Shown here: positions 33,946-60,181 of the stretch, piece after piece
Layout: the number at the start of each line of letters is the position of its first letter
Position numbering within the stretch: the first letter of the stretch is position 1
Assembly: GCA_977020255.1 (NCBI GenBank)
Contig: CDROCS010001147.1
Coordinates: 868,001 to 932,000 of the forward strand
Reading direction: 5' to 3'
Source: Obrimoposthia wandeli
Lineage: Eukaryota
DNA: 64,000 bases
Program-made: the position numbers and the translations under genes
Notes under the pieces: generated by a model
What the model was told of the DNA's origin: nothing
Seen by the model: only the letters and a program-made list of their open reading frames with translations
Database searches by the model: none

Positions 33946-34335
33946 AGTAGGTGGATGTGTCCGGTCTAATCCACACCCCCTCCCCCCTACTGTCCTTTAA
34001 AACCGTGCATGTGTGTGGAGTGAAATTTCGTGTATGTGTCTCCATTCCACCGAAAGTCGACGGATGATGGGTGAAAGTCGACGGATGATGGGTGAAAGTC
34101 GATGGGTGTTGGGTGAAAGTCGATGGGTGTTGGGTGGAAGTCGACGGGTGTTGAATGGAAACACCCAACAACCACCACCCGCCCTTTAGGGGCGGGCTCT
34201 ATTCTCACGAAAATAACTACAAATACACGCGTTACAGTATCACTTTACCTCTCACAACTACAAATGTAAACGACCCGTGTCATACCCAAGACCCTAACAT
34301 ACACCACCCGCCCCTTCGGGGCGGGCTTCATTCTT
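33946..34335. repeat. Left terminal/subterminal region of element A
   Basis: AGTAGG start; five ~21-bp units gaaagtcgacggatgatgggt (34052-34158); two GC hairpins cccgccc-ttta-ggggcggg (34178-34196) and cccgcccc-ttc-ggggcggg (34307-34325). Confidence 0.8.
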
Positions 34336-34426
34336 GATCTACAGGCACGCAAAACATCGGTCAGATCTATATAATTTAGGGGAGCAAAAACAAAATATGA
34401 GACAAAATTATTTTTCAAAATATTTA

Positions 34427-34831
34427 TTAAACATAAAACAACATATTGGCTTCACTCAAAGTCCAGAGAGGCTGCATTTTCCCGTCATCAGCAAAATATC
34501 CATTGAGACGTATTGAGATATTCCACAGTTCTTCATCTAGAATTGGAGCAATCAAATATCCTAGATCATCTTTAAAATCCAGACCGGGATCAGTTTCAAG
34601 CTGGAAACAATTTCCTTCATATACATAATCAGGAATGTAAAATCCCAAAATATTTTTCAATTGATCAATATCAGTTTTTGTTAAAATTTCGATGAGATAT
34701 TTATTCTCCACTTTTGATATTTTCACAGGATTCATAACTCGTATAATTTGATGCCTCTTTAATATATTACATAGTTTTCCTCTTGAAATTCTTTCTGGAT
34801 AATAAAAATTTTCTACACATCTCTTATCCAT
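34427..34831 (-). CDS. Element A hypothetical protein (134 aa), candidate OB-fold ssDNA-binding protein, paralog 1
   Basis: Intact ORF from MDKRC; 126/134 identical to 63236-63640; C-terminal WNISIRLNGY...GKMQPLWTLSEA similar to the neighbouring ORF. Function inferred. Confidence 0.7.
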   Translation of the reverse strand: MDKRCVENFYYPERISRGKLCNILKRHQIIRVMNPVKISKVENKYLIEILTKTDIDQLKNILGFYIPDYVYEGNCFQLETDPGLDFKDDLGYLIAPILDEELWNISIRLNGYFADDGKMQPLWTLSEANMLFYV

Positions 34832-34974
34832 TCTAAAATAAGGAAACTGATTAAAAACAATGTTTATAAAAAAAATACATATAAGATACAAATAAGATAC
34901 AAATAAAACTGATTATTAATTGCCAAATGAAAGAAACACAGTAAAACCGATTACAATTTATTACACGCAAAAAG

Positions 34975-35457
34975 TTAAAACATAGAAATATGAGCACGTT
35001 CAATTTTCCACATAGGCAACTTTGTTCCCATTTCATCTTTCTTGTAACCATAAAGTCGAATTGTTAGAGTCCATTGCTTCTTTTTCGGAAACGCATGAAT
35101 ATCAACATATCTTCCATAGTCATCTAGAAATGCTTCATCGGGTCCTCGGATATAAAATTCGTTCTTATTGAAAGTAAAATTTGGAACTGCCTTTTCAACT
35201 TTCTGTTTAAGATTTTGAAAATCTGGTTTTTGAATATTTGATAGATAGTAGCTGAACTTTCTTCTTTCAATTGTCACAGAATTTACTAAAGCAATCAGTT
35301 GAGCCTTCTTCAAGAATCTGACTTTGTATTTGAAATATTGTTTCACTTCTTCATACATATCCTTATCCGATTCTTCAAATATTTCTATATCTTCGTCATC
35401 GCTTAATACCCGTTGGCTATCGTCCATCGTTGATAATTGTCTTTGATATGAATGCAT
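34975..35457 (-). CDS. Element A hypothetical protein (160 aa), candidate OB-fold ssDNA-binding protein, paralog 2
   Basis: Intact ORF with acidic N-terminus; WTLTIRLYGY...GTKLPMWKIERA aligns with paralog 1; conserved in the second copy at the window end. Confidence 0.7.
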   Translation of the reverse strand: MHSYQRQLSTMDDSQRVLSDDEDIEIFEESDKDMYEEVKQYFKYKVRFLKKAQLIALVNSVTIERRKFSYYLSNIQKPDFQNLKQKVEKAVPNFTFNKNEFYIRGPDEAFLDDYGRYVDIHAFPKKKQWTLTIRLYGYKKDEMGTKLPMWKIERAHISMF

Positions 35458-35587
35458 TTACTGTGATTTGTCCTCCAATGGCGCATTCTTGTATACTAAT
35501 TTCTAACAAAGACATGAATCTCATTGGTTAATATAACTAAAGCATTGAATTTGATTGGACTAAATCTATATTAAAAATCAAAATTGA

Positions 35588-36195
35588 TTGGAAGAAATAT
35601 ATCATCCAATTATAATAGGTTTGCAAGAAACGTGCAATAAAAAAGCAGGTTCAGACATATATAAAGAAGATTTTACAGAATACAATTTCAGTCTAATGAA
35701 ACTCGTAAATATAAATTATAAAGGTAGAACAGAAGATGATGTTTCGTACTTACCATTCAATGAATGGAAGCCGAGACAATATGTAGAAATGTTTGACAAT
35801 TTCACAGTTGTTATTTTTCCTACAGGTTAGTTTTTTAGTTTATTTTCATATTGAATTCTTTAGGAAATTGTCGTGTTATGGGATGCAAAATACCAATGCT
35901 TGGGTTCAATTTACCATTTGGAATTCAAATCACTGCAATACAATCAATCACGATTTCGGCTAATCTCGGGAAACAGATAAATCTTTTTAAAACTGCAGAG
36001 AAAATGAAAGAAGAATGCATGTTTGAACTAGAAATTTTTCCTGCTCTCAGTTATTTGAAGTTTAAACCGCTATGTGTAAATATATTTTCCAGTGGTAAAG
36101 TTATGATATTGGGATTGAAAAACTTTGATTATCCAGACATAGTTGATTTGATTTTAGAAAATATTTCTTATTACATCTTGTTATCTTTTCTATAA
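35588..36195 (+). CDS. Element A TBP-like (TATA-binding protein fold) gene, spliced: join(35588-35825, 35864-36195)
   Basis: Removing the 38-nt GT-AG intron 35826-35863 joins VIFPTG-NCRVMGCK (TBP repeat 1 IFSSGKMVCTGAK-like); repeat 2 FELEIFPALSY...VNIFSSGKVMILGLK matches YEPELFPGLIY...LIFVSGKVVLTGAK. Start codon uncertain. Confidence 0.85.
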
Positions 36196-36223
36196 ACAAA
36201 CCTGTTTAAACTTATTTTTTTGA

Positions 36224-36496
36224 ATGAATAATACTATAAATAGAGACAATGAAGTGGATCGGCTTGCCGACGAAATATTTTCTGGAAAAATTAGGGGTAA
36301 AGAAATGTTATCAGAATTAAAAAATAATGATATAACAAGAGATAACATTGAAATATTGGTTAGATCACACGTTATTCGAGAATTTAGAAATCGTACACAA
36401 ATAAATAAAATTATAGCCAAATATTCATTAATTAATTTTTGTATTTCATCTACAATAGCTCTAACATTGTACATTTCAATAAGGAAACTTCTATGA
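36224..36496 (+). CDS. Element A small hypothetical protein with hydrophobic C-terminus
   Basis: 90-aa ATG ORF between TBP-like and ATPase genes; C-terminal YSLINFCISSTIALTLYISI. Confidence 0.55.
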   Translation: MNNTINRDNEVDRLADEIFSGKIRGKEMLSELKNNDITRDNIEILVRSHVIREFRNRTQINKIIAKYSLINFCISSTIALTLYISIRKLL

Positions 36497-36533
36497 TAAT
36501 ATAAACAATATTAAAAATGAAAGAGTATATGCA

Positions 36534-37181
36534 ATGGAGCTAAATAATAATGCTGTATTTCAAATAGTTGGCCCAAGTGGAAGTGGAAAGACACATTTCG
36601 TCTGTAAATTGTTGCAAAATGAATCTATTTTCAAATCTAGTTTCAAAAATATTTATTTGCATCATGGTGGAGGAGGGGAAAGCGGGTTAACCAAAACAGA
36701 AGTTTGCAAGTTGAAGGGTATAAAATTTATTGAAGGATTTGATGCAAATTGGTGTGAAAGATTGAAAAAAGAAGATGTAATAATAATTGATGATTTGTAT
36801 GAGGAGGCTAACAAGGAATCGGTCTTTAATAATTTATTTACAAAGATTGCAAGACATCGTGAAGTAACAGTTATATTTATCACTCAAAATCTTTTTCACC
36901 AAGGAGGTCACCATAGAACAAGAAATCTTAATGTACATTACTTAGTTTTATTTAAAAATCCTAGAGATCAAACAGTTGTTGATTTTGTGACCAGACAGGC
37001 ATTTCCTCAAAATAAGAACTTTCTAGTTGATTCATTCCACGATGCTGCTAAACAAGCACATGGGTATATATTTATTGACTTTACACAAGCTTGCCCAGAT
37101 GATTTACGTGTTTTAACAGACATATTTAATTCTAAGGGAATAACTGTTTATAAACAAATAGAGAACAATTATAAAAAATAA
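36534..37181 (+). CDS. A32/FtsK-like genome-packaging ATPase
   Basis: Walker A GPSGSGKT, Walker B VIIIDDL, KIARH, IFITQNLF, NVHYLVLFKNPRD; intact 215 aa. Confidence 0.92.
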   Translation: MELNNNAVFQIVGPSGSGKTHFVCKLLQNESIFKSSFKNIYLHHGGGGESGLTKTEVCKLKGIKFIEGFDANWCERLKKEDVIIIDDLYEEANKESVFNNLFTKIARHREVTVIFITQNLFHQGGHHRTRNLNVHYLVLFKNPRDQTVVDFVTRQAFPQNKNFLVDSFHDAAKQAHGYIFIDFTQACPDDLRVLTDIFNSKGITVYKQIENNYKK

Positions 37182-37358
37182 ATTCGCAATGCCTTTTACA
37201 AAGTTGATAGTAAAACGTAAAGTGAAATCTAAGAAATCAAAAAAAGAATCATTAAGAAAAAAGAAGTGAAAAAATTAATCAAATCTGTAGTTAAAAATAA
37301 AAAAAACTTAAATGGCTTCGAATATAAACAATATTTAAATTAAACCTTTTTTATTAAA

Positions 37359-37687
37359 ATGAAGAAAATACAAAGAAGCATACCCTATTTTAAAGCTTTA
37401 GTCAAAGCCTCTTCTAATAAGAGAATGATTATTCTTAAAGCATTTCCATCCTTTGTTGTAGATGATTTATTGGAAGTTTTGTATAATATAGTTTTGGTCG
37501 AGTAAAAGTTGGAAATCGGAAAAATATATTAAAGAAATATAAAAAAACTCTTCTAGATATTGCTAATGTAAAAAGTAAAAAAAGGAAACGAAATATTATT
37601 CTTAAACAGAATGGTGGTTTCATAGGGGCTGTTATTCTAGTTGTTGCTTCAATTATCAGTAGTATTATAGATGCGACACGTTCATAA
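37359..37687 (+). pseudogene. Maverick small basic core-like protein (QxGGF type), one frameshift
   Basis: MKKIQRSIPYFKAL...LEVLYNIV(fs)GRVKV...KKRKRNIILKQNGGFIGAVILVVASII. Confidence 0.7.
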
Positions 37688-37773
37688 ACAATTATTTCTA
37701 AAATCAGCTAAAGATATGGGTGCTAACTCTTCTTTACCTAAACTTAAATTTTCTTTCTATTCAAATTGTTGTA

Positions 37774-38802
37774 ATGGAGAAGATATGGTTCAATCCAAAA
37801 GATCCAATTGGCTACACAGGAGTTTCAAAATTAGCAAAAAGAACAAAACAAAATTACAAGAAAACGCAGAAATGGCTGAGCAACCAGTTAACCTACAGTC
37901 TGAACAAGCCGATGAGAAGAAGGTTTCCAACTAGAGTTTACAAAACCAGCGGTCCTAATAATTTATGGCAAATGGATTTGTTGGAGATGATCCCATATTC
38001 TTCCATTAATAAGGGATATCGATATATTTTAACATGTATTGATGTATTTAGCAGGTTTGCTCGTGCAATTCCAGTTAAAGCAAAGTCTTCAATAGCTATG
38101 CTTGAAGCCATTAAAGAAATATTAAAAGAGGACATTCCACAAAATGTGCAAACTGATTTAGGAAAAGAATTTTATAATAAGCAAGTTCAATCATTATTTA
38201 AACAAAATAATATAAATCATTACTCTGTGTTTTCACAATACAAAGCAGCAGTAGTAGAAAGATTTAATCGTACTCTAAGAGATCGAATAAAAAAGTATTT
38301 CACAAAAGAAGGAAATAAAAAATGGATCCAAGTTTTACCTAAAATAATACATGCATATAATCACTATGAACATAGAGGTCTCAAGGGAATGAGACCTGTT
38401 GATGTTACTAATAAAAACTCTATGGACATTTGGATGAACAGGAATAAAAAAGAAAAAATTAAAAAAGCTAAATATAAGAAAAACGAATATGTTCGAATTT
38501 CGAAAATTAGCTCTACTCCATTTATTAAATACTTTGATCAGAATTGGAGCGATGAAATATTTTGTATAAGTAAAATTGATCAAAAGAGTAATCCAATAAT
38601 GTATACTATTAAAGATGCTGACAATAATATCGTTCACGGTAAATTTTACGAGCAAGAACTACAAGTAATATCAAATAAACCTAGCGTTTTCCGTATTCAA
38701 AAAATATTAAAATCTAAGGGTACAGGTAAACATAAACAATACTTTGTTAAATGGCATGGTTATTCAGACCCAACTTGGATATCAGCATCTAATATAATAT
38801 GA
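37774..38802 (+). CDS. Retroviral-like (rve) integrase with C-terminal chromodomain
   Basis: WQMDL, YILTCIDVFSR, QTDLGKEF, VERFNRTL (D-D-E intact); QYFVKWHGY chromodomain; ORF open; likely start MEKIWFNP. Confidence 0.95.
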   Translation: MEKIWFNPKDPIGYTGVSKLAKRTKQNYKKTQKWLSNQLTYSLNKPMRRRFPTRVYKTSGPNNLWQMDLLEMIPYSSINKGYRYILTCIDVFSRFARAIPVKAKSSIAMLEAIKEILKEDIPQNVQTDLGKEFYNKQVQSLFKQNNINHYSVFSQYKAAVVERFNRTLRDRIKKYFTKEGNKKWIQVLPKIIHAYNHYEHRGLKGMRPVDVTNKNSMDIWMNRNKKEKIKKAKYKKNEYVRISKISSTPFIKYFDQNWSDEIFCISKIDQKSNPIMYTIKDADNNIVHGKFYEQELQVISNKPSVFRIQKILKSKGTGKHKQYFVKWHGYSDPTWISASNII

Positions 38803-39830
38803 AGTCTATGTATATGGTTTTACCAAGTAACGGATGTCCGAAGATTCAACCAGATAATTACGCTAGTAGCTTTATTGTCGATTGGGAAAATCCTATAAAT
38901 CTCCAAGGAGAATGGGAAGCGGCTTTAACCGAATTTTCTTTTTATTATTCTCAAATTACTATCAGATAAAACTCACATATTTCGTTTACAAAAGAAGTTG
39001 ATCATGAAAAAACAACTGAAGTTGTAATCGGGTTTGATAGTAAAAGAAAATTCTTTTACAATTGTATAGATAAAGAAGTGAAAGTAATATATGAAAAAAA
39101 CAAAGTCAGATTTAAAAATCGATCAAAACATTTTCAACCTATTCAAATTATATTCGAATCTGGAAAAGAAGCTCTTCAATTCGGTTTTGATAGTAGACAT
39201 GTAGTAGGTATGAAGAGATCTGATATTGTCTCATCTAAAATGTTTAAAAATGTTCCTAGTAGAGTAGTAAGAGTGTTGTTAGTTGAAACGAGACCAAAGA
39301 CTGTAGTGGAACTGAAAATGTTTTCAAAAAATTATAAAATAGATAGTGAAGTGAATTTCTGTAAATTAATACACAAGGAATGTAGTGAATATTTGGATAA
39401 AAGTGAAACATTAAAAAATGGTAAAATAACGTTTACAGTAATGAGCAATATAAAACGAGTTTAATTTGATGATAAACTCGCTAAAAACCTTGGTATAAAC
39501 AGAAATACCTTTGAAACCCATACAATAAAAACCATAAAAGCTAAAAATAAGGCAAAACTTTTAAATGATGTTAATCATTTATATATTTATACTAATTTAA
39601 TAAAACCAACGCTTGTTGGAGGACAACGAGTTCCACTTTTGAGAACAATATGGATATCTAAAAATGAAACTAAAGATGGTGACGCTGTCGGTATGTGTAT
39701 AGATCAACCAATGTATCTTCCAGTTGCTCTCTTTTCTATAAACAATATTGAAGTAAATATTAGAGATAATTCCGGACAACTAATAGATTTCACGTACGGG
39801 GCCAAGACAAGTTAAACAATACATTTAGGA
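38799..39830 (+). pseudogene. Minor capsid (penton-like) protein with three in-frame stops
   Basis: YMVLPSNGCPKIQPDNYASSF...PINLQGEWEAALTEF and LYIYTNLIKPTLVGGQRVPLLR...NNIEVNIRD; ATG overlaps the integrase stop (ATGA). Confidence 0.85.
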
Positions 39831-39837
39831 AAACAAA

Positions 39838-40190
39838 ATGGCGAATCCAGCCAACAAGGTGGATAATTACCATATTTTGTTGGTAAACAATACGGATCTG
39901 GCTGGCTTAGAACATTAGGTAGATTTGCCTTTCCTCTTTTAAAGAGACTCGGGCGATTTATATCAAAATTAGGAAAGGATTACCTTTCATCTAATGACAA
40001 TAAACTAATACCAACTTTTAAGAAGCATGCGCTTGATGAACTTGATAATGTTTTACTTGAAGTTGCTAATTTGATTAGAAAACGTAAATCAAATAAAAGC
40101 CAAGGAGGTAGTGGATTTAAAAGTAAAAAGAAGCTAAAAATTAATATAAACAAACGTAAGAATGTTGAAGGAACAATATTTGCAAAATGA
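39838..40190 (+). pseudogene. Maverick conserved small protein with amphipathic helix after a GxG motif, frameshifted
   Basis: KQYGSGWLRTLGRFAFPLLKRLGRF...SQGGSGFKSKKK; stop overlaps the major capsid ATG. Confidence 0.7.
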
Positions 40191-41416
40191 GTTGCGCCAA
40201 AACTGAATTATGTATTTTTGATAAACCGCTTCCACAAGTAGTTGTAGATAATGCTTCCTTTGAAGAAATATTCCTAGTTAACTCAGTTTCAGGAACCACT
40301 TTAATCGATTTAGAATTTAATATTAATGGTTCCAATAGCGAGTATTTAGATTTGAATGATACTTTGCTTTATGTTCAAATAAAAGTATTAAATCGGGATG
40401 GTACTAATTTAGATGAAAATGCCGATGTAACACCTGTAAATTATCTCTTTAATTCTTTATTTAATGATGCCATTATTACTCTTAATAATGTCAAAATTGA
40501 AGGTGGAAATTCTTCTTATGCTCATAAAGCTTTGATTGAAAGTCTTTTGAATTATAGTACTGATACTCAAAATACTAATTTGGCAACCATTGATTATGAT
40601 AAAACTGTTGCAACTCGCTAAGAATGGATTGCAGGTTCTAAAGCTTACGAAATGTGTGGGTCTTTGAGATTGAATTTCTTTGAAAAACCGAAATATTTAA
40701 TTCCCGGTGTTAATGTACATCTTCGTTTGAAACGTAATAAATGGAATTTTTCTTTGATAAGCACGGACATTCTAAAACCTAGACTTGATATTTTGGATGC
40801 AAAATTGTATGTTCAAAGAGTTAAAACCGAGCAATCAGTTTTAATGGCACATAATATAGGAATGGAAAAAAACAATGCTTGTTATCCTATTAGAGAAACT
40901 AAACTTATATCTTATTCTTTAGGTACGGGTACACAAGCTTTTAATAAGGATCAAACTTTTGGTGATGTAAGATTACCGAAATTCATTTTAATTTCTTTTC
41001 AAAAAACTGCAAAGTTTCTATGAAATTATACGACAGATGCAACTAAATTTGACAATCTTAATGTTGGTTCAGTGACACTTTCAAGAAATACTGATTATCG
41101 TGAAACATATAAAACATATTTCGAAGGTAACGCTTATGCTTTGGCTTATACCCAATCTATTATTCGGAATTTGGGTCAACTAGATAAAAATATAAACAAT
41201 GGTACTTCTTTCACTGACTTTAAAAACAGCTGCCCGTTCTTCACATTTGTTTTGGCACCAGACTTTGATATAAACCAATGCCAACTACCAAAGGATGGAA
41301 ATTTACGACTAGAAATTAAGTTCAATGCAGCTTTAACAAATCCTACTACGGTGCTTATTTACGGAGTATTTGATTCGGAAATACAAATCAATAAAAACAG
41401 AACTGTCATATTATAG
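40187..41416 (+). pseudogene. Major capsid protein (double jelly-roll), one in-frame stop and a frameshift
   Basis: KTELCIFD, LEFNING...YLDLNDT, KYLIPGVNVHLRLKR, LPKFILI, FDINQ...GNLRLEIKF...VLIYGVFDSEIQI; position between small core genes and protease is typical of Mavericks. Confidence 0.88.
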
Positions 41417-41417
41417 A

Positions 41418-41798
41418 ATGGAGTAAGACATATTTTAAATTTATATTTATTAATTTTTATTTAGTTCAAAACAAGTAAAAGAATCAGCAGAGAAGGTCCT
41501 GGGTTATAAATTCAATGGAGTTTATCCTATTGATATGATTCCATTTTTTCAATCAGGAGGTTACATTATCAATACTCATACTTCGAATTTACCAGGAGAA
41601 CATTGGATAGCTATTTATGTTAGAGAGTGGACAATACATGTATTTGATCCACTTGCAATGTCTTATCCCCACAAACTTGTTTCAACTATTCAAAAAGGAC
41701 GAAGAAGAGTATTTTACAACAAGATACAATATCAGGATCCTGCAACGAGAAACTGTGGACATTTATGTATTTTATGGTTATCGTTGCAAAACAATTAG
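41418..41798 (+). CDS. Adenain-like cysteine protease, spliced: join(41418-41422, 41465-41798)
   Basis: ATG GA|GTaaga...tttttatttAG|T (42-nt intron) gives MDSKQVKESAEKVLGYKFNGVYPIDMIP...; catalytic motifs GEHW, VFDP, YQ, NCGHLC. Confidence 0.88.
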
Positions 41799-42071
41799 TG
41801 TGTTATAAAAATAAAAATTTTAAATGTTTTATTTTGAATTATTTTTTAAATCTCTAAAAATAAAAGGGTAAAATAATAAAAGACATAAGACAATTTTTTT
41901 AATACATTTATTAATCACAACATCACAAAGAGATATGTCAGCAAAGATAAGGCATATTAAATAAGGTCCATCCTAAAAAAGTATTGAAATAACAAATAAG
42001 TTAGAGTCTAGGTGCCATAGGGATCTAAAGTTTTAAAAAACTAAACTAAAAAATCAAAAAATGAAAACCGT

Positions 42072-45000
42072 TTAAATTCTGAAGTGTCCATAAGCCAGGC
42101 TAGCGTTTTTTTCTACCCAAAAGCGCTTGTCGTCATTACTACTCAAAGCGATTTTGGTTGATTTATGGGAATACAGTTGATGGGCTCTTGAAATAAATCT
42201 AGTTTGCTCAACGCTTTCAATACACCCAGTATCATAAACTTTCCGGTAGGCCTCATGTGTAAGATTGTTTCTTCCCACACCCTTTGCTCTCATTGAACAT
42301 GTATTATTAGATGCATGTAAACTGTAGCATTTAGGGCGTAGGAAAATACAATCATCATACGAAACCTGTCCCTCGCTTTCATCCTTAAATTTCCCGATAA
42401 TGTCCTTTAAACTCATAGAGTGTAGAGAATGGTTAGCGGGATATTTATGGGTATCTAGTAAGTTGTCCCTAAACATTGCTGGTAATAATTGATTATTTAA
42501 ACTAACATTCCTACATTCTAAAAAGAAAGAGTCAGTGTCCCCTGCCGCGATTTTAATCTCACAATTAAATTCTTGTCGGTATTTCTCCAATTCTATGTAT
42601 TGAAGCTCATACATTCTGAGTTTAGAAATGTCTAAAACCGTTTGACCTATATAACTCGGTCGATCGAGACAAATACTCTGTTTTCCAAATAACACTGCTA
42701 CCAAGTCATCTGCAATTGTAAAACTACGCTTGAAGTTGTACTTACTAGTATATGTTATTAGTTTACGCTCATCATTGCAAAACCGTAGAAAAATAAGTTT
42801 CCGCAAGTCCTCTACAGTTTTTCCAAAGAGACTATTACTTTTTAACTTGTAAAAATCTCGATCGAATTTGCTAGTGGCCAAATTACGTTTTCTTGAATTC
42901 TTCTCAATATAGTCTTTAAACACAAAGTTTTGACTGAAGCTTATAGCACGATGAATTCGAGTAACTTTCGCTCCCAACTTTAAGTAGAATTGAAGAAGCC
43001 GCCAATGCACAACATAATTCAACTTGTCTTTATGGGTTAACAATAATTTCTTAACCTTTGAATTAGGTGGGCATTGATGAACAGGCGCTACTGGAAGATC
43101 ATCTAATTTATCATGCACATTGGGAGGGATTTTTATGTCCACCTCAACCAAATAGCCGACGTCGGATGAAACTGTATCAACAGTAGCCAAATCTGTCATC
43201 AACTTATTCAACTGATCCACATCATAAACCCACTTAAAGTTGGCATGAGGTAGAGGTTGAGTAAGCGCCCACCCATACAAATTATTAATATCGATGTACA
43301 GAATCTCCGTGGATTGATTTTTGACAACATGATGTTTGTTGACAAAAGTCATTCCACCGCGTATACCATTATCATACATTTGATACATCGCGGGATCTTG
43401 CAGTAACTCGATATTAATTTTAAGAGTTTTTATTGCTGTTGCCCATGAAAGACCAGGTAAACTAAAGAAATGCATGGGATCTAGCCCATCTTCTGCTAAA
43501 GACTTTACACGAAAGGACTCAAAAACATCAGCTAAAAGATAAATGTCTAACTTCATATAATAAAGCATATATTCTAAAAGATTTCGACAATTATTCACCC
43601 AAAATGTACGGGCCTCATTATAGTCTTAAAGACTTACACTTTCAAATTCAGTTATGGGTGGGATTTCAGTTGTATTTTTTAAATCTGCGAAAGTTTTCGC
43701 AAATTTATACGGAAAAATCCCCTTATCGTTAACCGAAGCTGGGAACACTGACTGTGTAATTGGCCATGCATTTAATGATGCCGTTAAATTTTTTAAAGAC
43801 CCGCTCAAAAACTGCAGAGAATCTATGAATCTTAAACTGCAGAATTCAGTATATGCAGTTAAAGATAAATATTTCTCTGAAGTTTGAGGTATACATGAAA
43901 TTTCCCAAGAGCTTAAAGTACCCAACGCGTATTTAAGTATATGATGCAAATCATATCCTTTGAGGTTATGAAACACGATGGGAATGCGTGGTTTTTTAGG
44001 GAGACGACGGCCAAGGTTACAAAGGTTGCACGCCGCTCCCAAGTATCGCCCCGTAATATGATCGTGATCTCTGACTAACTTAGACTGGATTCCACACAAA
44101 TAACATAATCTACAAGAATTAAAATTAACCCAGTCTAGGCCTGTCATGATCATTGCTTGCTGAGCATTGAGATCATACCACGGTTTGACAATTGTTGTTC
44201 CTAATTCCTCTAATTTTAACATAAAATCTAAAATACAATTTGGACCGGAAAATTTATGATACTGGGTAATATTGGGGCCTAAGAATAGTAGTCCTGCCGA
44301 AGCCGGTAGGTGAATACTCTCATACTGGTCGTGCAATACTAAAATTGACTCAAAATCTGCATACATCCTGAATTCCATGGGTATGCATTTTGCCCAATCC
44401 CTGAATTTTAAATCCTTATCCTTAGGCATGCTATAAAGCGTATTGTCATCAGGATTCAGTGGACATAATGTCAGATGTTTGCTGTAAGAGAGCTCGGATC
44501 GGAATCCATGCAAACATCTATGACACCACTTATCCTAACCGGTAAGGCTTCATTATCTAAATTTAGAAGACGATCTAAACTGGGAATTGCAGCATAATGG
44601 AATTTATTATTCTGTTCGAGAAAAATTAAGTTGACCTGAGTCCCCTCATTTTTGCTCCTATAAATTACATCTACAAAAGGATTTTTAAATATTTCTTCGT
44701 CTGTTACATTAACTGGGATATCAGTATTATATTTGAATACATTAATACTCAAGTTATTAAGATGTTCAAATCTTGATATCGCAGTTAATTTAACAGGAAA
44801 ATCTATTCCATGATACTGCAATTCATTTAAAAAAGGGATATATTTACTGACACGCTCTCTATGTTCAGTAATTACATCCCTTTTGAGGATGGCCAACACG
44901 CTATACAGAAAGCAAAGGTTATCACTGTTTTGTACGTTAACAATGGAACGTGAAAGTTGAAGAGATCTAGGTGAAGGAATGTATGAACTCCCCGAAAGAT

Positions 45001-46513: not shown

Positions 46514-46551
46514 TATTTCAAATTGTCGGGGATTTAAATGAAGAAAGTGTT

Positions 46552-49845: not shown

Positions 49846-50127
49846 TTATTTGTCAACTCTAACAGCTTCAATTATTTTCCATATCGGAGTTTCCAATCCA
49901 CTAATTGCACCGATATTGCATCCTTGAATTATGATTGAGAGAATCCATTCTAATTTAAGAGGAGGTCCATCGAATATTGTTCTATTCTCCTGCTTGAAAG
50001 TGGCAGTTGATTCTTTGATTATGAATTTGTTTTCCTGAAGCGCATAGTTGATTCCGAATTGAATCGAGAGAATATTGATTCTCTCTTTATCCACCAAAGT
50101 CAAATTTGATATCAATTTCAAAATCAA
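49846..50127 (-). CDS. Element B hypothetical protein
   Basis: 93-codon ORF just inside the left TIR; no recognisable motif. Confidence 0.35.
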   Translation of the reverse strand: MILKLISNLTLVDKERINILSIQFGINYALQENKFIIKESTATFKQENRTIFDGPPLKLEWILSIIIQGCNIGAISGLETPIWKIIEAVRVDK

Positions 50128-50771
50128 ATTTAAGCGGCTCGATGTTTTCAGGAAAAATAAAATTATAGTTATGAGCTTTTTTCAAAAAGTGCATCTTATA
50201 TCCATAATATGTATGCATAGGTTGATATAGCTTTTCAAAATTCATATTTACAATTATAAGTTGAAATATTCAATTGTTTATCCTCTAAAGCTCAATTCTA
50301 ATTAGTAGATATTCTTGTTTATGAAAATCGTTTAGTATTAGTCATATCTTTAAAGGGCTTACGTTCTTCGGTTACGCGCGTAGTACTTGTTATTGTTTGA
50401 CCCGATAGATTAATATTTTCTCTCTGATTATTTATATTATAATTCATATTCGAATATCAATTACTACCAGAACCTATATATGTACTAGCTCTACTTTGAT
50501 TATTTTGATTATTTTGATTATTCATTTTCAATAAAATCATTATCAAAATATTGTTTATATTGCTTTATTCTTAAGACAAAGACATCACATGACATTTCTT
50601 CTAAATACTAAGAATGTTACTAAAATATATATTAGTTATTATATATGCTAAACAATTAATACATTCAATGTTGTTATGACTACTAAATTTTTTGTACATT
50701 ATGTTTCGGAAAATGGAGAACTCACCATTAGACGACGACGTTTTGACTAGATTTCAAGAAGAAAGGAAGAT

Positions 50772-51677
50772 ATGATATATGAGCGACATAGATTTGATAG
50801 ATTACAAGCAAAGTTTACTGGTTTAGCGGATAAGAGAGATTTAGCAAAAGCAGGATTTTATAAGCACGATGATTCAAAAGATAATCTAAAGTGTGTTTAC
50901 TGTTTTGGAGGAATATCGGAATGGGAGTTCTATCTGAAACCAATGAAGCAGCATATGCTATATTTCCCAACATGTCCGTTTGTTTTGAAAATGAATGTAT
51001 CAAATATACCAATAATTGATTCCAGCATCAAGCAAATTGATTTTGATTCAACTCCAATGGATAAAGTAGTTATTGTACGCAATAATTATTCTAATGATAT
51101 TGAAATACCTACATTATCGATTTTCCCTCATGTATATATTTGGAATGATTCTTATCGATATTGTTTCTGTCAGAAAGCAGTACCCCGACTTGAGTTTATT
51201 GATACTATGCCTGAAAGAATCTTTCATACTCGAGATTGTAAAGCATCTATTATGGAAATCAAGAATAGATGTATTGTTGAATATCATATTAGTAATTATG
51301 AAATTGATGCTCATATGGAAACTCGTCAAATAGTTTTGCTGAAACGTGATTATAGCCATGATAGAATCAAAGCCGTTTTAATTAATAGGTTTAAAACATT
51401 CGGTAATAATTATGATTCTATATATGAGTTTAAACCAGATTTAAGATCTTTAGAAATAAAATCTGAAACAAAACATCGTATTAATTATCTCGAGTACCTC
51501 TTACCAAATCCCGAATGTATTGTTTGCATGACTGATATTATTTCCGTGGTATTTTTACCATACGGACACTTAAACACATGTATTAAATGTTCAGATCGTT
51601 TTATTTCATGTCCATATTCCAAGACAATTATCATTAGACGAGTAAAAAATATTAGATTTCATAGTATAGGCAATTAA
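50772..51677 (+). CDS. iap: Inhibitor of apoptosis (one BIR plus C-terminal RING)
   Basis: BIR LAKAGFY...CVYC...W...H...FPTCPFV; RING CIVC...FLPYGH..TCIKC...CPYS with two expected cysteines substituted. Confidence 0.88.
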   Translation: MIYERHRFDRLQAKFTGLADKRDLAKAGFYKHDDSKDNLKCVYCFGGISEWEFYLKPMKQHMLYFPTCPFVLKMNVSNIPIIDSSIKQIDFDSTPMDKVVIVRNNYSNDIEIPTLSIFPHVYIWNDSYRYCFCQKAVPRLEFIDTMPERIFHTRDCKASIMEIKNRCIVEYHISNYEIDAHMETRQIVLLKRDYSHDRIKAVLINRFKTFGNNYDSIYEFKPDLRSLEIKSETKHRINYLEYLLPNPECIVCMTDIISVVFLPYGHLNTCIKCSDRFISCPYSKTIIIRRVKNIRFHSIGN

Positions 51678-51749
51678 ACAAAGATACGTAATCTAAAAAT
51701 ATATGTTCAAATAGTATAAATAGAAGAAATCAGTTTATAATAATCAGAA

Positions 51750-52184
51750 ATGCTACTTCACAATATAAAATTAGTGAATATTAATTACAAGGGAATGGTT
51801 GTAAGTAACATTCAACACTTGCCATTTCTGACTTCGAAAGCCTCATCAGTATCGACTCAAGTGTGAAGGTTATACTATTATCATTTTCAAATCTGGTAAT
51901 TTATTTTTACATTTAAATATAATTATAATTTAAGCACATGCAGAATAAGGGGTTGTAAAACAGTGCTGGATGAAAGCACTCTTCATTTTGATATAAAAAT
52001 CGAAAGAATCCAATCAATCAGTCTCAGTAGCAATCTAGAAACATCAATAAACCTGAGCAAGATGAGCAAGAATATGGGTTCGGAAGCTGTTTACGAACCA
52101 GAAATCTTCCCGTGACTTCGATACGTCAAGTACAATCCACTATGCGTGAACATTTTTGCGAGCGGGAAGATTATTATTACTTAG
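51750..52184 (+). pseudogene. Element B TBP-like gene with intron 51896-51934, decayed
   Basis: KLVNINYKG identical to A; IIIFKSG|GT..39 nt..AG|TCRIRGCK; YEPEIFP*LRY...VNIFASGKIII; stop and frameshifts. Confidence 0.85.
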
Positions 52185-52373
52185 TGTTAAATCTTTAAAT
52201 TATGAATATCTGATTGAATGTATTTTGTTTAATATACATATTCACACTTGTGTTATATTATGTGGCAACAACAACAACAGTTATGAGAAGAGAAGAAACT
52301 ATTGATGAAGTGATTATAGAATTAGTAATTATAGATCCGATTATTGAAGAAGATATGAGATTTTTTTAATGCT

Positions 52374-52918
52374 TTGGCTTTTATGGAACCCATAATAGCT
52401 CATGCTTCCAGTATGGAGATGAACCACATGACCCATCTTTTTGATAGTTTGTTTAGTGCTAGATTTACTCAATTTAATGTAGAAAAGTTAAACAAAACAA
52501 AAATGAGTGAGATTTTAGTAAATCAATTATATATTGGTTATTATCGAGATGGGTTTGATGAAACTACACTTTTGAACTCCGATTTCACTCATGTAATCAA
52601 TACATCTATACTGGATAAGATATCTTATAAGAAATTAAAATATACTTATGTCTTTGTAAACTCAAAAGAGGAGAAACAATAATGAGATATTATAAACAGA
52701 CTAATAATATAATTAAAGAAACTATCGAAATTGATGGTAAGATTTTAGTATGTGGTCATTATGGTAGTTTACATGCTGCTTGCATTGTTATTGGATTTTT
52801 ATCTCATTCGATGGGTGTTACTGCTGCTTCCAATCTTGTTAAAACTAAACGGACTATTGCTGTTCCTAATGAAGCTATGCTTCATCAAATACGCATTTTT
52901 ATTCGTTATCATGTATAA
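52374..52918 (+). pseudogene. Dual-specificity phosphatase-like gene lacking the catalytic HCxxGxxR motif, split at a TAATG overlap
   Basis: QLYIG, FTHVIN, KILVCGHYGSLHAACIVIGFL (aligns with VLVHCxxGxSRSATIVIAYL), KRTIAVPNEAMLHQI (KRxxxxPNxGFxxQL). Confidence 0.75.
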
Positions 52919-53280
52919 ATTTTATTCGTCTTTATCTTTATTAATCAGTGTTTTTTATTAGTAAGTGTCTTTATCAGTCAGTGTCTTTATTAGTCAGTGT
53001 CTTTATTAGTTAGTGTCTTTATTAGTTAGTGTCTTTATTAACCAATTAGATTTCAGATGTATAGTATATAAGCAGATTACATTTTACTGCTTCTGGTACA
53101 GCAGCTTCCAATATTATTAAAGCTAAACGGACTATTGCTGCTCCTAATGAAGCTATGCTTCATCAAATACGTATTTTTAATCGTTATCATGTGTAAATTT
53201 TATTCGTCTTTATCTTTATTAATCATTGTCTTTATTAATCATTGTCTTTATTAGTTAGTGTCTTTATTAGTCAGTGTCTT
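52821..53280. repeat. Duplicated phosphatase 3' end plus 16-bp agtgtctttattagt(c/t) tandem repeats at a rearranged junction
   Basis: ~130 bp from ~52821 repeated at ~53098; 16-bp arrays at ~52960-53040 and ~53220-53282. Confidence 0.85.
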
Positions 53281-54414
53281 TATTTTCCGGAACATCTTCT
53301 CCGGATTTAGAATTCAATATAAATGGATCAAATACTCAATATCTTGATTTGAATGATAGTTTATTTCTCGTTAAATTGAAAGTTACTAAGGAAGGAGGAG
53401 GTAACTTGGATGATGATTTGGATATCAAATTAGCTAATTTCAATTTTCATACACTTTTCAAGGATGTGATTCTCAGTCTCAATAATGCGAAAGTTGAGGG
53501 AAATAATACTAGTTACACCCATAAAGCAATGATTGAAACATTACTGAATTACGGTAATGATACGAAATTGATTAATCTTGATGCAATTGGGTTTGATAAT
53601 GATGAAAAAAGAAGAACAGCTTCCATTGCAAAGTCTAAATTATCGTCGCTTTGTGGGAGTTTCCATTTGGATTTCTTTAAGCAACCAAAGTATATTTTAC
53701 CCGGTGTAAGTGCACATAATCGAATGAAGAGAAATCCAGTAGGTTTTAGTGTTGTTTGCGATGATACTATTAAATCAGCAATTGAGATTACGGAAGCAAA
53801 ATTGCTGGTTTGTAGAGTAAAAGTGGAACCATTTGTACTCGTTGCACATCGAATAGGGTTATAGAAGCAAAATGCATGTTATCCTATTAGGAAAAACTAA
53901 TCTTGTTTCTCATGCTATCACTACGGGAGCACTATCTTATTACAAGGAACAGATTTTTGGAGATATGCAAATTCCAAACTTTGTTTTAATTGCTTTCAAA
54001 AACACGTCTACCTATGGAGGTGAGTCTAAAAATGAGGTTTCTCAATTTGGACATATGAATGTGAGTTCAATTAAACTAGCCCAAAAAATTTATTATCAAG
54101 AAACTTATACGAATGACTTTGAAAATAATGATTATGTGTTTTCTTATGTGCAATCTTTAATTAGAAATCTTGGTCATTTGGATAAGGATGCTAATGTTGG
54201 AATTTCAATGACTGATTTCAAAGACAAGTATACACTGTTCACATTTGTTATCTCCCCTGATTTTGATATAAATCAAGCTCAAATCCCTAAACAGGGAAAT
54301 TTTAAAGTAGAAATCAAGTTTACAAAAGCACTTGAACATCCTACTAATATTATAATCTACGGAGTATTTGATTCTGAGGTTCAAATTACCAAGGAAAGAA
54401 CAGTACTAGTATAA
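53274..54414 (+). pseudogene. Element B major capsid protein, 5'-truncated, with stop and frameshift
   Basis: LEFNINGSNTQYLDLNDS, KYILPGVS, FDINQAQIPKQGNFKVEIKF, IYGVFDSEVQI; clear paralog of 40187-41416 missing the KTELCIFD-type N-terminus. Confidence 0.88.
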
Positions 54415-54449
54415 ACAAAATGAAAACAATAAAAAACAAGAAGATACAA

Positions 54450-54819
54450 ATGAAGTAAGTTAGTTTGAATGAATTAATTAATATATAATCTAGTTCGGAC
54501 GAGATAACAAAAAGCAGAAGAAAACTACTCGGTTCGCGTTTCAATGGAGTCTACAGTCTTGATCATATCCCATCTTTGACTCGTCTAGGTGGATATGTAA
54601 TCAATACACATTCATCTAATTTGCGCGGTGAACATTGGATTGCAATACATGTTAAATAAAATGAAATATTTGTTTTTTACACCTTTGAGATATTCTAAAT
54701 TAGTATATACAGTACTTGACTCTGGAAAGAAAGTACATTTTAGTAAGAAACATTATCAAAATGTTTTAACACAGTCATGTGGACAACTCTGTCTGCTTTG
54801 GTTAAAGCATAAACAATAA
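54450..54819 (+). pseudogene. Element B adenain-like protease with intron 54455-54493, decayed
   Basis: ATG AA|GTaagt..39 nt..ctAG|T gives MNSDEITKSRRKLLGSRFNGVYSLDHIP...GEHWIAI; later stop and frameshift; QSCGQLC. Confidence 0.85.
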
Positions 54820-54829
54820 ATATAAAAAT

Positions 54830-55280
54830 ATATCAAATAAAATTGAAGCTTTTATTGATAATAATACTGAACTTGTAATAAATAACTATGCATAATGGAT
54901 ATGGATGCAATCTTCTATCCTAAACATTATGTTTTTAAAATGCAACCTATATGGGGTATGATGAATATAAAATCAAGAAAAATAAATAGATATCTCATTA
55001 AGCATTACCATCGACTAAAACTAGTTGATGGTAATATTTATTTCAAGATAAAAGAAATAACTGAGGAAATAAAACATTGATGTGATGTATCCAAATCAGT
55101 TTTCTTTGTTTCATATGAATATAATGGAGCTAAAATAAAGACAATCAATAAATATTTTCCAGAATTTAGAGTGATAAATTACTCGAAAACATTAAAACAA
55201 TTAAATCTATCAAATATCAATTATCTATATATTAAACATGGAGAGCTTGTGCATACAAGAAATGCTTTGCAGCTAGTTTG
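54830..55280 (+). pseudogene. Element B DnaQ/DEDD-like exonuclease-fold homolog, decayed
   Basis: IEAFIDNN..(fs)LCIMD..FYPKHYVF...NRYLIKHYH...INKYFP aligns with the A gene at 46714-47185. Confidence 0.6.
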
Positions 55281-55339
55281 AATTATTTAAATATTAATGA
55301 AAAATCAACTACTTACATTAATCAGTAAACTATTTTGAA

Positions 55340-55433
55340 TTTTGATTGGATTAAATAATAAATGAATCTGATTGGTTTAAATTATGAATGAATCTGATTG
55401 AATTAATACTAGTTCGAAAATAGTATATAAGCA
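55340..55433 (+). promoter_or_regulatory. Putative element B polB promoter: ATTGG boxes plus TAGTATATAAGCA
   Basis: ATTGG at ~55345 and ~55371; 13-mer at 55421-55433, 44 bp before ATG 55478. Confidence 0.6.
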
Positions 55434-55477
55434 AGCATCAATCAACAAATAACTCTATATTATAAACGAAATTGAAA

Positions 55478-58400
55478 ATGGTAAATTTCTTGATATTTTT
55501 CTGAAATTTTTCTAGAATTGCAACATGAATAAACGATTATGATTTGAGGAGAGTCACAAGGAATGTGATTTGAAAATGAAGAGTTGCTTTGGGCAGAAGT
55601 TCAATGGACAACTCTTCTACGTCTGTCCAGTATGTCTCTCCGCGGAGGAGATTGATTGGTTGGAGTTTGTGGCGAGTCATCGCACCCATCTTCGGTATTT
55701 TCAGCAACGTGGCAAGAAGGTCATCGTCCAGGATAGAGCTCACAGTAATATGACTGCTCATCCTGCTACCATTTCTCAAGATCTCAAGTTGCTGCTTCTT
55801 CGCCAATTATTGCACCAATTGCTGGTCCAGTATCTACTCCAATTGCTTGTCCAGTATCTACTCCAATTGCTGCCCCAGTTGCTGAACCAGTTACTTCTTT
55901 AATTCATGCACCAATTACTTCTCCAATTGCTGCGCCAATTGCTTCTCCACCATCTGCTGTACCCCCTACTGTGCTTCCAGCTATGTTTCCTCCATCAACA
56001 GTTGGTATGATCCCTATGCCGTTACCAGCATCTACCCGCAAGAGAAGTGTTATGCCCACTTCAGGTAGCTCTGTTGCGAAGTTTCCTAGGGTTGATGTCG
56101 TTAAGCGAAAAACTAGTTTTCGGGGAAAGATTGAGACATTGTCATTAGATATTTCTAATGACAATGTCATTGATTTACAAGTTCCCGAGTCACTTTTGAC
56201 TAGCTTAACGGATATAGTCAGCATGTTTGCGACTTGTAAGGTATAATTCGGGGTGCGTGTTGAATTTTCCAATATTGGAGAAACACGTGCTTGAAACCTT
56301 TTTTTTAGAGAAACCTTTTTTCCAATAGAGGGCTCCCCATAGATGAGGGATTTATTTGATGCGGGAGTAGATGGGATCAATAAGAAGATTGAGAATTATT
56401 CCCAGAGTAGCAGTAATTGGGTAGTGAACCGCTTCCTGGAGATTTCGTTTGTTGTGACTAAAACAACAACAATGAGCTATCTCCAGGGGGTAGTTTTATA
56501 CCTACTCCATCTGAGTTAGCACTCTCACATTGCGTTATCAATGTGCAGAACTCTAACACTTTTTGCTTCCTTTACAGTATCTTATCTGTACTTTTCCGCA
56601 AAGTATTTCGCTCTAATCCTCATCGGATTAATCAATATGATGCCCTGTTGAGTCAAATAGTTTTGGATGAGAATGAGATGCCGATGCGTCTATGTAATAT
56701 ACCGCGATTTGAGAGAAAGAACCCATCTCTCTCAATCAACTTATTTACATTCAATAGGTTTTCAAATGTGCAAACGGATAGGGATATCTTTAAAAATCCC
56801 TATGTGGATGTCATAAACAGAACCATAAACCCGGATCTAAGCAAATCAATCTTCTCATTTTAGAAAATAATGATAATTTTTCTTATCTTGGTATTCCTAA
56901 ACTCAATAGGCTGCTTAATTATAGGAACAGAGGTGTATCTAATCGCATCCAGGATACTTGGTGCCATAAGTGTCTCCATGGGTTCTGAAGACCGATAAGT
57001 TACGCCAAACACGTTCCGCTCTGTAGGATGAATTTAGATCAACACTTTATTCAATACATACAGAGAAGCATATTGAGTTTAAGGACTTTTCAAAAACTAT
57101 TTCTCCGCCTTTTGCTCTTTACGCGAACTTTAAAGCTGTGCTGCCACCACATGGAATACATAATCAGATTCAGCTTCCAATCACGGCCGGCATGCTCATG
57201 TCTCCTGTAGCAGCCACGACAGGGTACACACATGATTACTCGGTCTTTACAGAGGAATCTTGTGTGGTATCCTTTTTCTCCCATAGTACAAAAAGCATGC
57301 GATCGAGATGATGCGACAACTTACAGGTATCGAGTTTCAATGCCACAAGAATCTGTTACCTGTGTAAGAAGAAACTCACAAACAAAGTTCGAGATCACGA
57401 TCACATGACGGGCAAGTACCTCGGAGCAGCGCATACGAAATGCAACTTATAAAGGAGATTGAATCGCTCTTTACCCGTCAATTTTCATAATTTGATGGGT
57501 AATGATATGCACCACATACTGAAACACGCACTGTGCAAGTTTCCTGGCTGGAATGTCTCTGTTATACCTCAATCAACAGAGAAATTTCAGGCTATGATGG
57601 TGTATATTGGAGGAGTCTGTATTCGCTTTATAGATTCCTTGCAATTTTTGAACAGCGGACTTGAAAAACTTGTGGATAACCTGGGTGTGACTCCTCTAAC
57701 ACATTTGGTCTTTCTGCAACATCTGGTAAGCGCTAAGGGCATCTTCCTATACGATATGGCAGTGCCGCCAAAGTGGGATGAGAAGATCAAGCCAGCACAA
57801 TATGAGATGGCGACGATGGTCTAGACTCAGAGCGACTGCTCATCGCTCTGGGACTATATGCTGGTCTATACGAAGATGGACGTCTACCTTCTAGCAGATG
57901 TGTTTACAACATTCCGGACCAAGGCCATTGCTGACGATGGATTGGAGCCGCTTAATTTCTTCTCCATCCCTGGTTTGTATTTTACTATTTTTTTCTAAAT
58001 AAATTTTCATTAAGTAATATTTATTAAGTAGCTTTTAACTAAATAATAATTTTCACAAAGTAATGATTTTCACTAAGTAATGATTTTCACTATGTAATGA
58101 TTTGAATAAAGGTTTTATTTCTAGGACTGACTTTTGCGAGTGCTTTCAAGTCACTACTTCACCCGGATTCTTCTTCTTCTGCTCATCCTGTATGAGTCGA
58201 GCTAATCCAGGATCCGGAGATGTACCGTCTCTTCCGCTACGGGATTCGTGGAGGCATGACCTTCGTGAATGAACACAAGGTGGACGAAATCAACGGTACT
58301 GAACTTTTGTACATTGATGTAAAGAATTTGTATGGATAGGCAATGTCCCAGTTTTTACCTTGTGGTAACCTGTCCTGTGTGACTGATCGGTTAGAGTTGG

Positions 58401-59546
58401 GGAATATTATTTTCAGCTTAAAATCAGCAAATTTATCCTGTAATCGCTTCGCTCATTTATTGGAAATATATTTATCCATTCCCAATGAGCTACATAATAA
58501 ATTCGACGATCTTCCCTTGCTCTAATTAAACAGTGTCCACCAGGGTGTAAGACTGAAAAATTGTTATTAACGCATTACCCTAAGAAACACTATGTTGTGC
58601 ATTCTAGATTGCTACAAACTTACGTTAGACTTGGTGCTGTAGATTTTGTATACAGAGCAATACAGTTTGAACAAACTAATGTTTTTTCAAAATACATTGA
58701 GGATAATTATCTTAAAAGAGCTGCGGCTACAACAGATTTCGAGTGGGATTATTACAAACTGAAGGTGAAATCTTTATTTGGAAAACTCATTGAGAATCTG
58801 ATGAAAAGAATTAACCTCCTGATTTGTAATACTCCACAGAAGCTGGTTACCTATTGTAGTAAAGCCCACTTTCATAGGACAATCGAAATCGATCCGGACC
58901 TTATTGCAGTTCTACTGGATAAGAAAAATATTGTTTTGGATCGTCTTAGTCATATAGGCCAGGCAGTATTAGATCTAAGCAAACTTTGTATGTATGAGCT
59001 ACAATATGAGCAGTTGGAGAGATATCGGGCTCAATTTAACTGTGACATTAGAATTATAGCAGGTGACACGATAGTTTTTTATTGAAGTGCAATAATGTAA
59101 ATGTTCAAGAAATATTGTTACCTTCTATGATTGCTGATAGACTGTTGGATACCTCGAAATTTCCAAAAACCCATCCACTTTATACGACGCTAAATACAGC
59201 GATAGGCAAATTTACAGATGAGAGCAAGGAATTATTTAGTTATAGGCAAGGGATTTTTCTACGTCCAAAATCATATAGCTTAGAGACTACAGGTGAATCT
59301 CAGATGAGAGCTAAAGGTATTTGTCTCCGAAAGACAAGTATTAGACACTCTAATTACTTAGCCGTCTATGAGAGTGGCGTTAACGAGCATGTACAACAAC
59401 AACGTATAAGCTCGCTAAATCATCAACTTTTTACTGTAAGGTTAAGTAAAATTGCCTTAAGCAGTAGCGATGATAAACGCAAGTGGGTGGAGAGAAACCG
59501 ATCAGTTGCATATGGTCACTTTTTATACCCGGACGATGTTATATAA
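55478..59546 (+). pseudogene. polB: Element B protein-primed PolB, spliced and heavily decayed
   Basis: ATG|GT intron 55481-55515; FYVCPVC...HRTH finger; P/A-rich linker; VINVQNSNTFCFLYS; RDHDHMTGKYLG; FHNLMGND; intron 57973-58124; GIRGG; KLKVKSLFGK; RPKSY; many stops. Confidence 0.9.
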
Positions 59547-59776
59547 ACTTTTTATATGTTTATGTATATATTTTTACTCTCCTTTGTGATTTTAAGGAAT
59601 ATATTTTTCAAAAATACTTGTCTTTAAAATTATTTGTATTTACATAAAGTTGCAAGTTTTTTGCAATGTAGATGCAGTACGTGACTGTCTTTGTAGGTAT
59701 TGATGACTATCTTTGTTAGACACTCACACACATGCATACATGTATAAGAATAAATGTAGTACTTGGCTTGTAAGTA

Positions 59777-60181
59777 TTGATTACATAAAGTTTTAAGTGC
59801 AATTGAAAAGGATCCTAGTGCCTATCTTGGTAGAAAACATTTACTTATACCTCCAAAGAGTTTGTAATTACATAAAGTTGCAAGTTTTGCAATATAGATG
59901 CAGTACTAGACTGTCTTTGTAGGTATTGATGACTGTCTTTGTTAGACACTCACACACATACATACATGTATAAGAATAAATGTAGTACGTGACTTATTAC
60001 TATTGATTACATAAAGATGTAAGTATTTGCAATATAGATGCAGTACGTGACTGTCTTTGTTAGAGAGATACACGAACTTTTAAACATATTTATCAAATTA
60101 TATAATACTTTTTTTATAAGTAGATAATTTAATTGAATTTAGTTTAAATAAATTATATAAGTTAAGCTTGAACACATACAC
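59777..60181 (-). repeat. Right TIR of element B, preceded by an extra subterminal duplicate (~59600-59770)
   Basis: Reverse complement of 49172-49577. Confidence 0.93.

Follow-up and report, generated by a model that had tools for sequence, protein, structure and literature searches.

Decayed Maverick elements of Obrimoposthia wandeli with a minimal TBP and a candidate late-gene box

A stretch of 64,000 nucleotides from Obrimoposthia wandeli (contig CDROCS010001147.1, positions 868,001 to 932,000; hereafter the window) contains two adjacent decayed integrated elements of the Maverick/Polinton type, A and B, which belong to different families and both carry a gene for a miniature TATA-binding protein (mini-TBP). 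It is rather likely that this protein served as the elements' own late-gene switch, which is predicted to bind the box TATAAACA and to recruit the host factors TFIIB and RNA polymerase II (Pol II). To our knowledge, Mavericks encode neither an RNA polymerase nor a known transcription factor. A natural minimal TBP along with a defined box brings the timing of their virion genes within reach of an experiment that needs just a small protein and a short oligonucleotide.

The TBP fold that a preliminary description of the DNA had assigned to proteins of both elements was recovered by profile as well as structure searches. The second exon of the A gene matched the Pfam family PF00352 above its cut-off (E 1.5e-10), and the broken B copy yielded an E-value of 8.5e-4. 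The mini-TBPs comprise 144-155 amino acids and are ~29 residues shorter than the TBP core. Structure prediction was performed with the natural intronless mini-TBP of family E and an alignment of 68 sequences; a single-sequence prediction gave a pLDDT of 29. The resulting AlphaFold model (pLDDT 97.3) has no helix in residues 1-61, and all of its 144 residues align to residues 66-238 of yeast TBP, the 173-residue core, with Z 13.6-14.0 and an rmsd of 2.4 A; Foldseek supported the TBP fold as well. Both helices of the N-terminal repeat (H1 and H2) are predicted to be absent, and the span across H2 amounts to 28-34 residues in mini-TBP rows versus 43 in canonical ones. In yeast numbering, the Phe99 column is empty in all 58 short rows (three being fragments), three of the four intercalating phenylalanine equivalents are present in 47 of 47 mini-TBPs, the equivalent of Asn159 is serine in 45 of these 47, and the Glu-Pro-Glu residues of the stirrup are kept in 46, 45 and 46 of them, respectively. 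The mini-TBP does not have the two complete repeats and four intercalating phenylalanines of a canonical TBP; it does have the acidic C-terminal stirrup, the glutamates of which serve TFIIB contact in canonical TBP (PMC12529657).

The saddle fold, the C-terminal repeat, the stirrup and three of four phenylalanines are common to the mini-TBPs, the cellular and archaeal TBPs (PF00352) and those of Nucleocytoviricota, whereas the shorter length, the helices missing from the model, the Asn159-to-serine change and a separate long-branch clade distinguish the mini-TBPs from the cellular and archaeal proteins. Giant-virus TBPs serve virus-encoded polymerases. The mini-TBP is under purifying selection, with dN/dS ratios of 0.17, 0.18, 0.33 and 0.36 in four pairs of intermediate distance among nine pairs. 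A quick tree of 117 rows separated 85 viral-type from 32 cellular-type sequences, the latter including four host rows, with an SH-aLRT support of 100, and a topology forcing host and element TBPs together was rejected in a 58-row subset (p-AU 5e-7). A recent capture of the host TBP is rejected by the separate 85-row clade and by this test. The host possesses two TBP genes in divergent orientation, ~650 bp apart (L020, G000:C238; L021, L022), as well as intronless divergent TRF-like genes. The co-occurrence of TBP and Maverick core genes in other genomes, for which a search had been proposed, was found in metagenomes: nine of 18 mini-TBP loci contain Maverick core genes, five more an SSB-like neighbour, and four are short contigs with TBP only. 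Moreover, a profile search with the mini-TBP returned 27 clusters at E<1e-30, of which the 20 checked were labelled only as TBP or hypothetical. The viral contig collection searched contained no relatives of the mini-TBP or of the capsid protein.

The second line of evidence is the distribution of the box. The motif ATAAAC[AG] starts 32-35 nt before nine consecutive open reading frames (ORFs) in the metagenomic locus L043 and 32-41 nt before eight genes of A in the window; its background frequency, determined in 119 kb outside Mavericks, is 3.9e-4 per base and strand. The pattern recurs in families B, D and E, and T is favoured at position 1 of the box. No ATAAACA was present in the 90 nt upstream of the 11 mini-TBP genes displayed (one near match), and TATAAACA does not precede polB either; upstream of many mini-TBP genes, and of polB in A and B, TATATA is found along with CCAAT. 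The integrase lacks its own box. Six contigs with a TBP have the box before 19 of their 50 ORFs; for comparison, 17 PolB relatives that lack a mini-TBP, namely the IMG/VR contigs L102-L118 with a distant PolB of this type and, in 14 cases, an integrase, have it before 2 of 223. The box of the capsid gene is located in Ile-Asn codons of the core gene, where the synonymous positions are kept in seven of seven lineages, the expectation being 7-14% from codon usage and the frequency at such dipeptides elsewhere 8 of 30. As far as can be judged from sequence, these patterns suggest that TATAAACA is a viral late promoter.

According to the proposed mechanism, the mini-TBP gene and polB would be early genes with ordinary TATA/CCAAT promoters recognised by host TBP, and the early transcripts would be spliced by the host spliceosome, which would make the element nuclear and Pol II-dependent. 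The mini-TBP would then bind TATAAACA, in preference to TATAAAAG, and turn on the ATPase, integrase, capsid and protease genes, its stirrup recruiting host TFIIB and Pol II to these virion genes. In cellular TBP, contacts to the 3' side of the box come from the N-terminal half, which in the mini-TBP is remodelled and may accept the C at box position 7. The N-terminal-repeat helices of TBP provide surfaces for TFIIA, TAF1, Brf1 and Mot1, which the loss of these helices would remove. By its position, TATAAAC presumably equals the C(-25) variant of the TATA box. Cellular TBP binds the C(-25) variant via a Hoogsteen pair (PMC8643651; PDB 1QN3).

The micro-introns that had been described as conserved were found at identical sites of the TBP and protease genes in A and B. 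The TBP intron has 35-39 nt, GT-AG boundaries and a variable sequence, and its codon position is identical among A, B and three copies of D; the TBP genes of family E and P0002 read through. The protease intron after the fifth base occurs in A, B, C, D, E and the metagenomic L043 and is absent from L055. An intron directly after the ATG of polB is present in A (46504-46458) and B (55481-55515), below a TATA element that, as had been stated, is conserved between both elements, in all of its 12 bases; polB of A contains two more intron-like gaps, near 45930-45865 and 45775-45730. The intron calls rest on comparison with intronless homologues, which the searches favour. By this comparison, the TBP, protease and polB genes have conserved introns, which are presumably spliced by the host. 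The conservation of spliceosomal introns speaks for a long existence of the elements in the nucleus under Pol II, and prokaryote-style gene callers will miss such intron-bearing genes. An intron-like gap near 57975-58124 (+), in the polymerase domain of B, was detected in B copies and is absent from A; it may represent a family-specific intron gain or loss.

Several observations weigh against a late-gene switch. Every genomic copy examined, a full-length one included, has breaks. One near-identical pair (~1% divergence) gave a dN/dS of 1.0, and the ratio was saturated or nearly so in four of the nine pairs. The box is mismatched before the core and protease genes of A in all copies seen, lies 67 nt before the penton gene in A, B and E, and is more distant in L055 (47-83 nt). 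Since the controls without a TBP are partial sequences of distant relatives (23-31% identity in PolB), the co-occurrence of box and TBP amounts to essentially a single contrast between lineages that are related. Finally, AGATAAACA is repeated without fixed position upstream of polB in A, and ATAAACA also matches a forkhead site. The two latter observations, together with AP-1 arrays in the B terminal repeat that show the use of host-type sites, would suit a box that is a host element, either a forkhead-type or a core-promoter motif, and aims the virion genes at a tissue such as the germ line, the mini-TBP having another job. We consider this unlikely, since the spacing to the start codon is fixed at 32-41 nt, T occupies position 1 in 21 of 27 sites, and the near absence of the box in TBP-less relatives fits a clade-tied element at the TATA position.

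The probability is slightly lower still that the mini-TBP acts as a decoy or repressor that occupies TATA boxes or sequesters TFIIB and thereby damps host genes or the element's own early genes. The loss of one intercalating phenylalanine and two helices is in line with such a role, as is the presence of IAP and pseudo-phosphatase genes alongside it in some families, but the clade-specific, positional box would remain unexplained, and host shut-off is hard to reconcile with germ-line amplification to ~30% of the genome. We regard it as improbable that the box is read by another element protein, such as a member of the SSB-like family or PolB through its N-terminal zinc finger, with the mini-TBP serving as its cofactor or bending DNA for replication or packaging. 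Families A, D and E, and 10 of the 18 loci from metagenomes, do have an SSB-like gene next to the mini-TBP gene, yet the partial contigs L050 and L055 combine a mini-TBP with boxes and show no SSB-like gene.

With respect to known systems, a late-gene switch by the mini-TBP would resemble the TBP mimic of beta- and gammaherpesviruses (ORF24 of Kaposi's sarcoma-associated herpesvirus, BcRF1 of Epstein-Barr virus) in that a nuclear virus without its own polymerase combines a TBP fold with a variant TATA sequence before late genes. The herpesvirus mimic reads a TATT late box, and ORF24 is a large multidomain protein without the TFIIB-contact glutamates that binds Pol II directly with five partners (PMC12529657), whereas the mini-TBP of 144-155 residues keeps these glutamates. 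If true, the switch would represent a route to late transcription independent of the herpesviruses, with the TFIIB contact lost by ORF24 retained, and a natural deletion experiment on the N-terminal helices of TBP. Beta adintoviruses (PMC8502044) are similar to the present elements in their terminal repeats, the 6-bp duplication, a pPolB divergent from pfam03175, the rve integrase, the ATPase and adenain, and differ in that the mini-TBP, the conserved introns and the late box are features of the present elements. In the accessible portions of that article (Starrett et al. 2021), the only occurrence of TBP is in the legend to a figure of viruses recovered from non-animal datasets; the text refers to IAP, and genes in Supplementary Fig. 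S2 are labelled MAEL, SSDBP and IAP. The preliminary description had postulated a dedicated transcription and host-control module; the transcription signal stands, and the host-control part is not new, since IAP, MAEL (DEDD-fold) and SSDBP labels have already been published for adintoviruses.

A literature search outside subscription journals and Repbase revealed no TBP in an animal Maverick, Polinton or adintovirus, and term searches of the accessible text returned no mention of TBP or TATA in a 2026 survey of small eukaryotic DNA viruses and none of TATA in Jeong et al. Vertebrate Mavericks are reported to be intronless in their core ORFs (Barreat and Katzourakis 2021, PMC8097293), whereas the present elements have GT-AG introns in the TBP, protease and polB genes; the introns of dinoflagellate Maverick-like elements are reported to be introner insertions (PMC11957031). 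The additions made by the present window are the conserved introns, the controlled promoter comparison and the genome load.

The genome comprises ~1.35 Gb, is AT-rich and contains Wnt genes (14 exon matches on 6 contigs), which identifies the host as an animal. The Maverick load was estimated from 37 stretches at fixed offsets, one per contig, with a total of 358,969 nt; three of 40 contigs were too short, and one offset was moved off a known hit. Four natural bait copies covered 30.5% of this sample (bootstrap 20-41%; 28.8% with earlier baits), the sampling being per contig with short contigs omitted, and shuffled baits gave no match in the same sample. The copies are 88-94% identical to the baits, and eight mini-TBP matches in the sample extrapolate to ~30,000 copies or fragments, which agrees with 32,663 unscored candidates. 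A similar mass occupancy is known from Trichomonas vaginalis, with about one-third of the genome (PMC10120064), and from coral polintoviruses, with ~7.8% (PMC11131425), the highest animal figure compared. A load of ~30% in an animal would be several times that figure.

At least four mini-TBP-bearing families (A, B, D and E) are present in the genome. A PolB tree of 101 rows, in which 80 of 120 database hits were kept, placed A, B, D, E and L043 in one clade of 31 rows (SH-aLRT 99) that is interleaved with metagenomic proteins; named adintovirus references were not among the PolB and capsid database matches. These data support the assignment of the mini-TBP Mavericks to a diversified, intron-containing clade with its own transcription signal, and the diversification anticipated earlier holds for the four families of this genome and the metagenomic relatives. 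A bolder reading, to which we give about even chances, is that they form a genus-level clade of nuclear animal Mavericks with the smallest known viral early-to-late switch (a half-stripped TBP of 144 amino acids, a private TATAAACA promoter, and host TFIIB and Pol II), gated by host splicing via the conserved micro-introns, and that this switch brought about a Maverick expansion larger than any so far observed in animals, ~30% of 1.35 Gb.

Maverick/Polinton ends were identified by copies outside the window. The full-length copy of family A on contig C635 has 16.8 kb, terminal inverted repeats of 93 bp that begin with AG, and a 6-bp target-site duplication, and is broken too. The left end of B, previously placed at the inner inverted repeat (49178), lies 480 bp further left at 48699, a terminus common to many copies, and A has lost its right terminus. 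The terminal repeat of B measures ~880 bp and is present at both ends of the copies on C194 and C3672, and a target duplication of the 6-bp type was seen at a short B copy on C1100. Element B of the window is devoid of the ATPase-integrase-penton-core block that other B copies have. The reported gene order was confirmed for A, with polB inverted, and for B, with polB colinear with the capsid block; fragment C, for which colinearity had also been claimed, belongs to a third family (~60600-61700) and holds capsid, DEDD and protease genes, the latter with the common intron, and no polB in the window. The in-frame stops of A in the window are mostly absent from other copies and thus point to decay rather than a variant code; an alternative genetic code was rejected on these grounds. 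The coordinates are compiled in Table 1.

Table 1. Features of elements A and B (positions within the window)
Feature	Positions	Strand	Remarks
Element A, decayed Maverick copy	33946..48698		left end 33946; right terminus lost, B starts at 48699
Two paralogues (28% identical) of a ~120-160-aa family, putatively SSB-like	34430..35457	-	usual neighbour of mini-TBP
Mini-TBP gene of A, two exons	35696..36195	+	intron 35826-35863, 38 nt, GT-AG
Packaging ATPase	36534..37181	+	Pox_A32, E 1.6e-7; ATAAACA box at 36501
Small MG...CC ORF	37716..37934	+	own box at 37684; overlaps integrase start in other frame
rve integrase with chromodomain	37774..38802	+	rve, E 7.8e-13
Putative minor capsid (penton) and core-protein genes, broken	38800..40187	+	assigned by location and by resemblance to intact homologues from metagenomes
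Putative major capsid protein, ~408 aa, two in-frame stops	40187..41416	+	box at 40146 within core gene
Adenain-like protease	41418..41798	+	intron 41423-41464 after fifth coding base
Protein-primed PolB, N-terminal zinc finger, broken	42075..46507	-	DNA_pol_B_2 and Endonuclease_7 matches
polB TATA element of A	46553..46564	-	12/12 bases as in B (55421-55432, +)
DEDD/MAEL-like gene, frameshifted	46720..47185	-	box at 47220
ORF with single AT-hook-like GRP motif	47946..48608	-	no Pfam match
Element B, decayed copy, second family	48699..60181		internal deletion near 53094-53288; right terminal repeat truncated at 60181
Five AP-1-type TGA[CG]TCA sites	49032..49084		inside left terminal repeat of B
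IAP	50751..51677	+	BIR and RING
Mini-TBP gene of B, broken	51750..52260	+	intron 51896-51934, same site as A
Dual-specificity-phosphatase-like (DSPc-like) gene	52359..52918	+	CX5R arginine absent
Capsid gene of B (5' part deleted) and protease	53271..54819	+	protease intron 54455-54493
PolB of B, colinear with capsid block	55478..59546	+	start-codon intron 55481-55515

The canonical Polinton core claimed for A was verified by matches of the ATPase, the integrase and PolB, and weakly of the protease, for which the Peptidase_C5 match has an E-value of 0.017 in the window and one of 1.1e-7 in the relative L055; Adeno_PX matched the L055 homologue at E 0.017. Profile searches with the penton and core genes of A gave no match. 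The capsid family (~408 aa, expected position, 118 clusters) had no sequence match in Pfam, NCBIfam, PHROG or PDB, and TBP-bearing rows lie on both sides of the midpoint of its tree. The polymerase part of A PolB (517 aa) did not match PF03175 at E 0.1, only short stretches matching. Family D has zinc finger and PolB in a single, intron-free reading frame, in support of the extension by a zinc finger that the preliminary description gave for PolB. In the upstream part of a family D polB (G000:C408, L037-L038), this zinc finger is preceded, in frame with PolB, by a stretch that looks ubiquitin-like and ends in LRGG.

Among the accessory genes, the DEDD-like gene was found in A and B as described and belongs to a widespread family; the model of the L055 homologue matches RNase_T/Rv2179c-like clusters (TM 0.65-0.71), and its Maelstrom match (0.86 by features) is a lead only. 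The IAP of B was likewise recognised by its domains. The phosphatase-like gene retains its DSPc-like assignment and looks catalytically dead, the CX5R arginine being missing in the window copy and in C3672. The two SSB-like genes of A are indeed paralogues, but B holds one such gene too, and a function as SSB has no profile support: the family had no Pfam, PHROG or PDB match and no significant match in an OB-fold profile search. Similarly, the proposed AT-hook protein of A is limited to one GRP motif, and of the putative enhancer array ascribed to A the AGATAAACA repeats are present upstream of polB, the AP-1 sites being part of B. No OTU domain was matched in profile searches of the window or its relatives. 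An element-borne TFIIB was rejected for these families, as there are only 11 TFIIB matches genome-wide.

The small ORF of A has counterparts in D, E, L043, L046 and L047 that keep Gly2 and a Cys-Cys pair near residue 13-20, and one B copy keeps the pair only; the product looks like a myristoylated and palmitoylated peptide. Further Maverick remnants of the window comprise an orphan A-family terminal repeat with no element body alongside (16080-16192, -), a second, internally deleted A copy at 62800-64000 that ends ~6.2 kb past the window, and short decayed integrase and mini-TBP fragments at 5468-5918 and 27431-27496, outside the A/B region. Moreover, the interval 17656-21951 consists of a CpG-free 88-bp satellite in ~49 copies that is flanked by a 56-bp inverted repeat (17430-17485 and 21919-21974).

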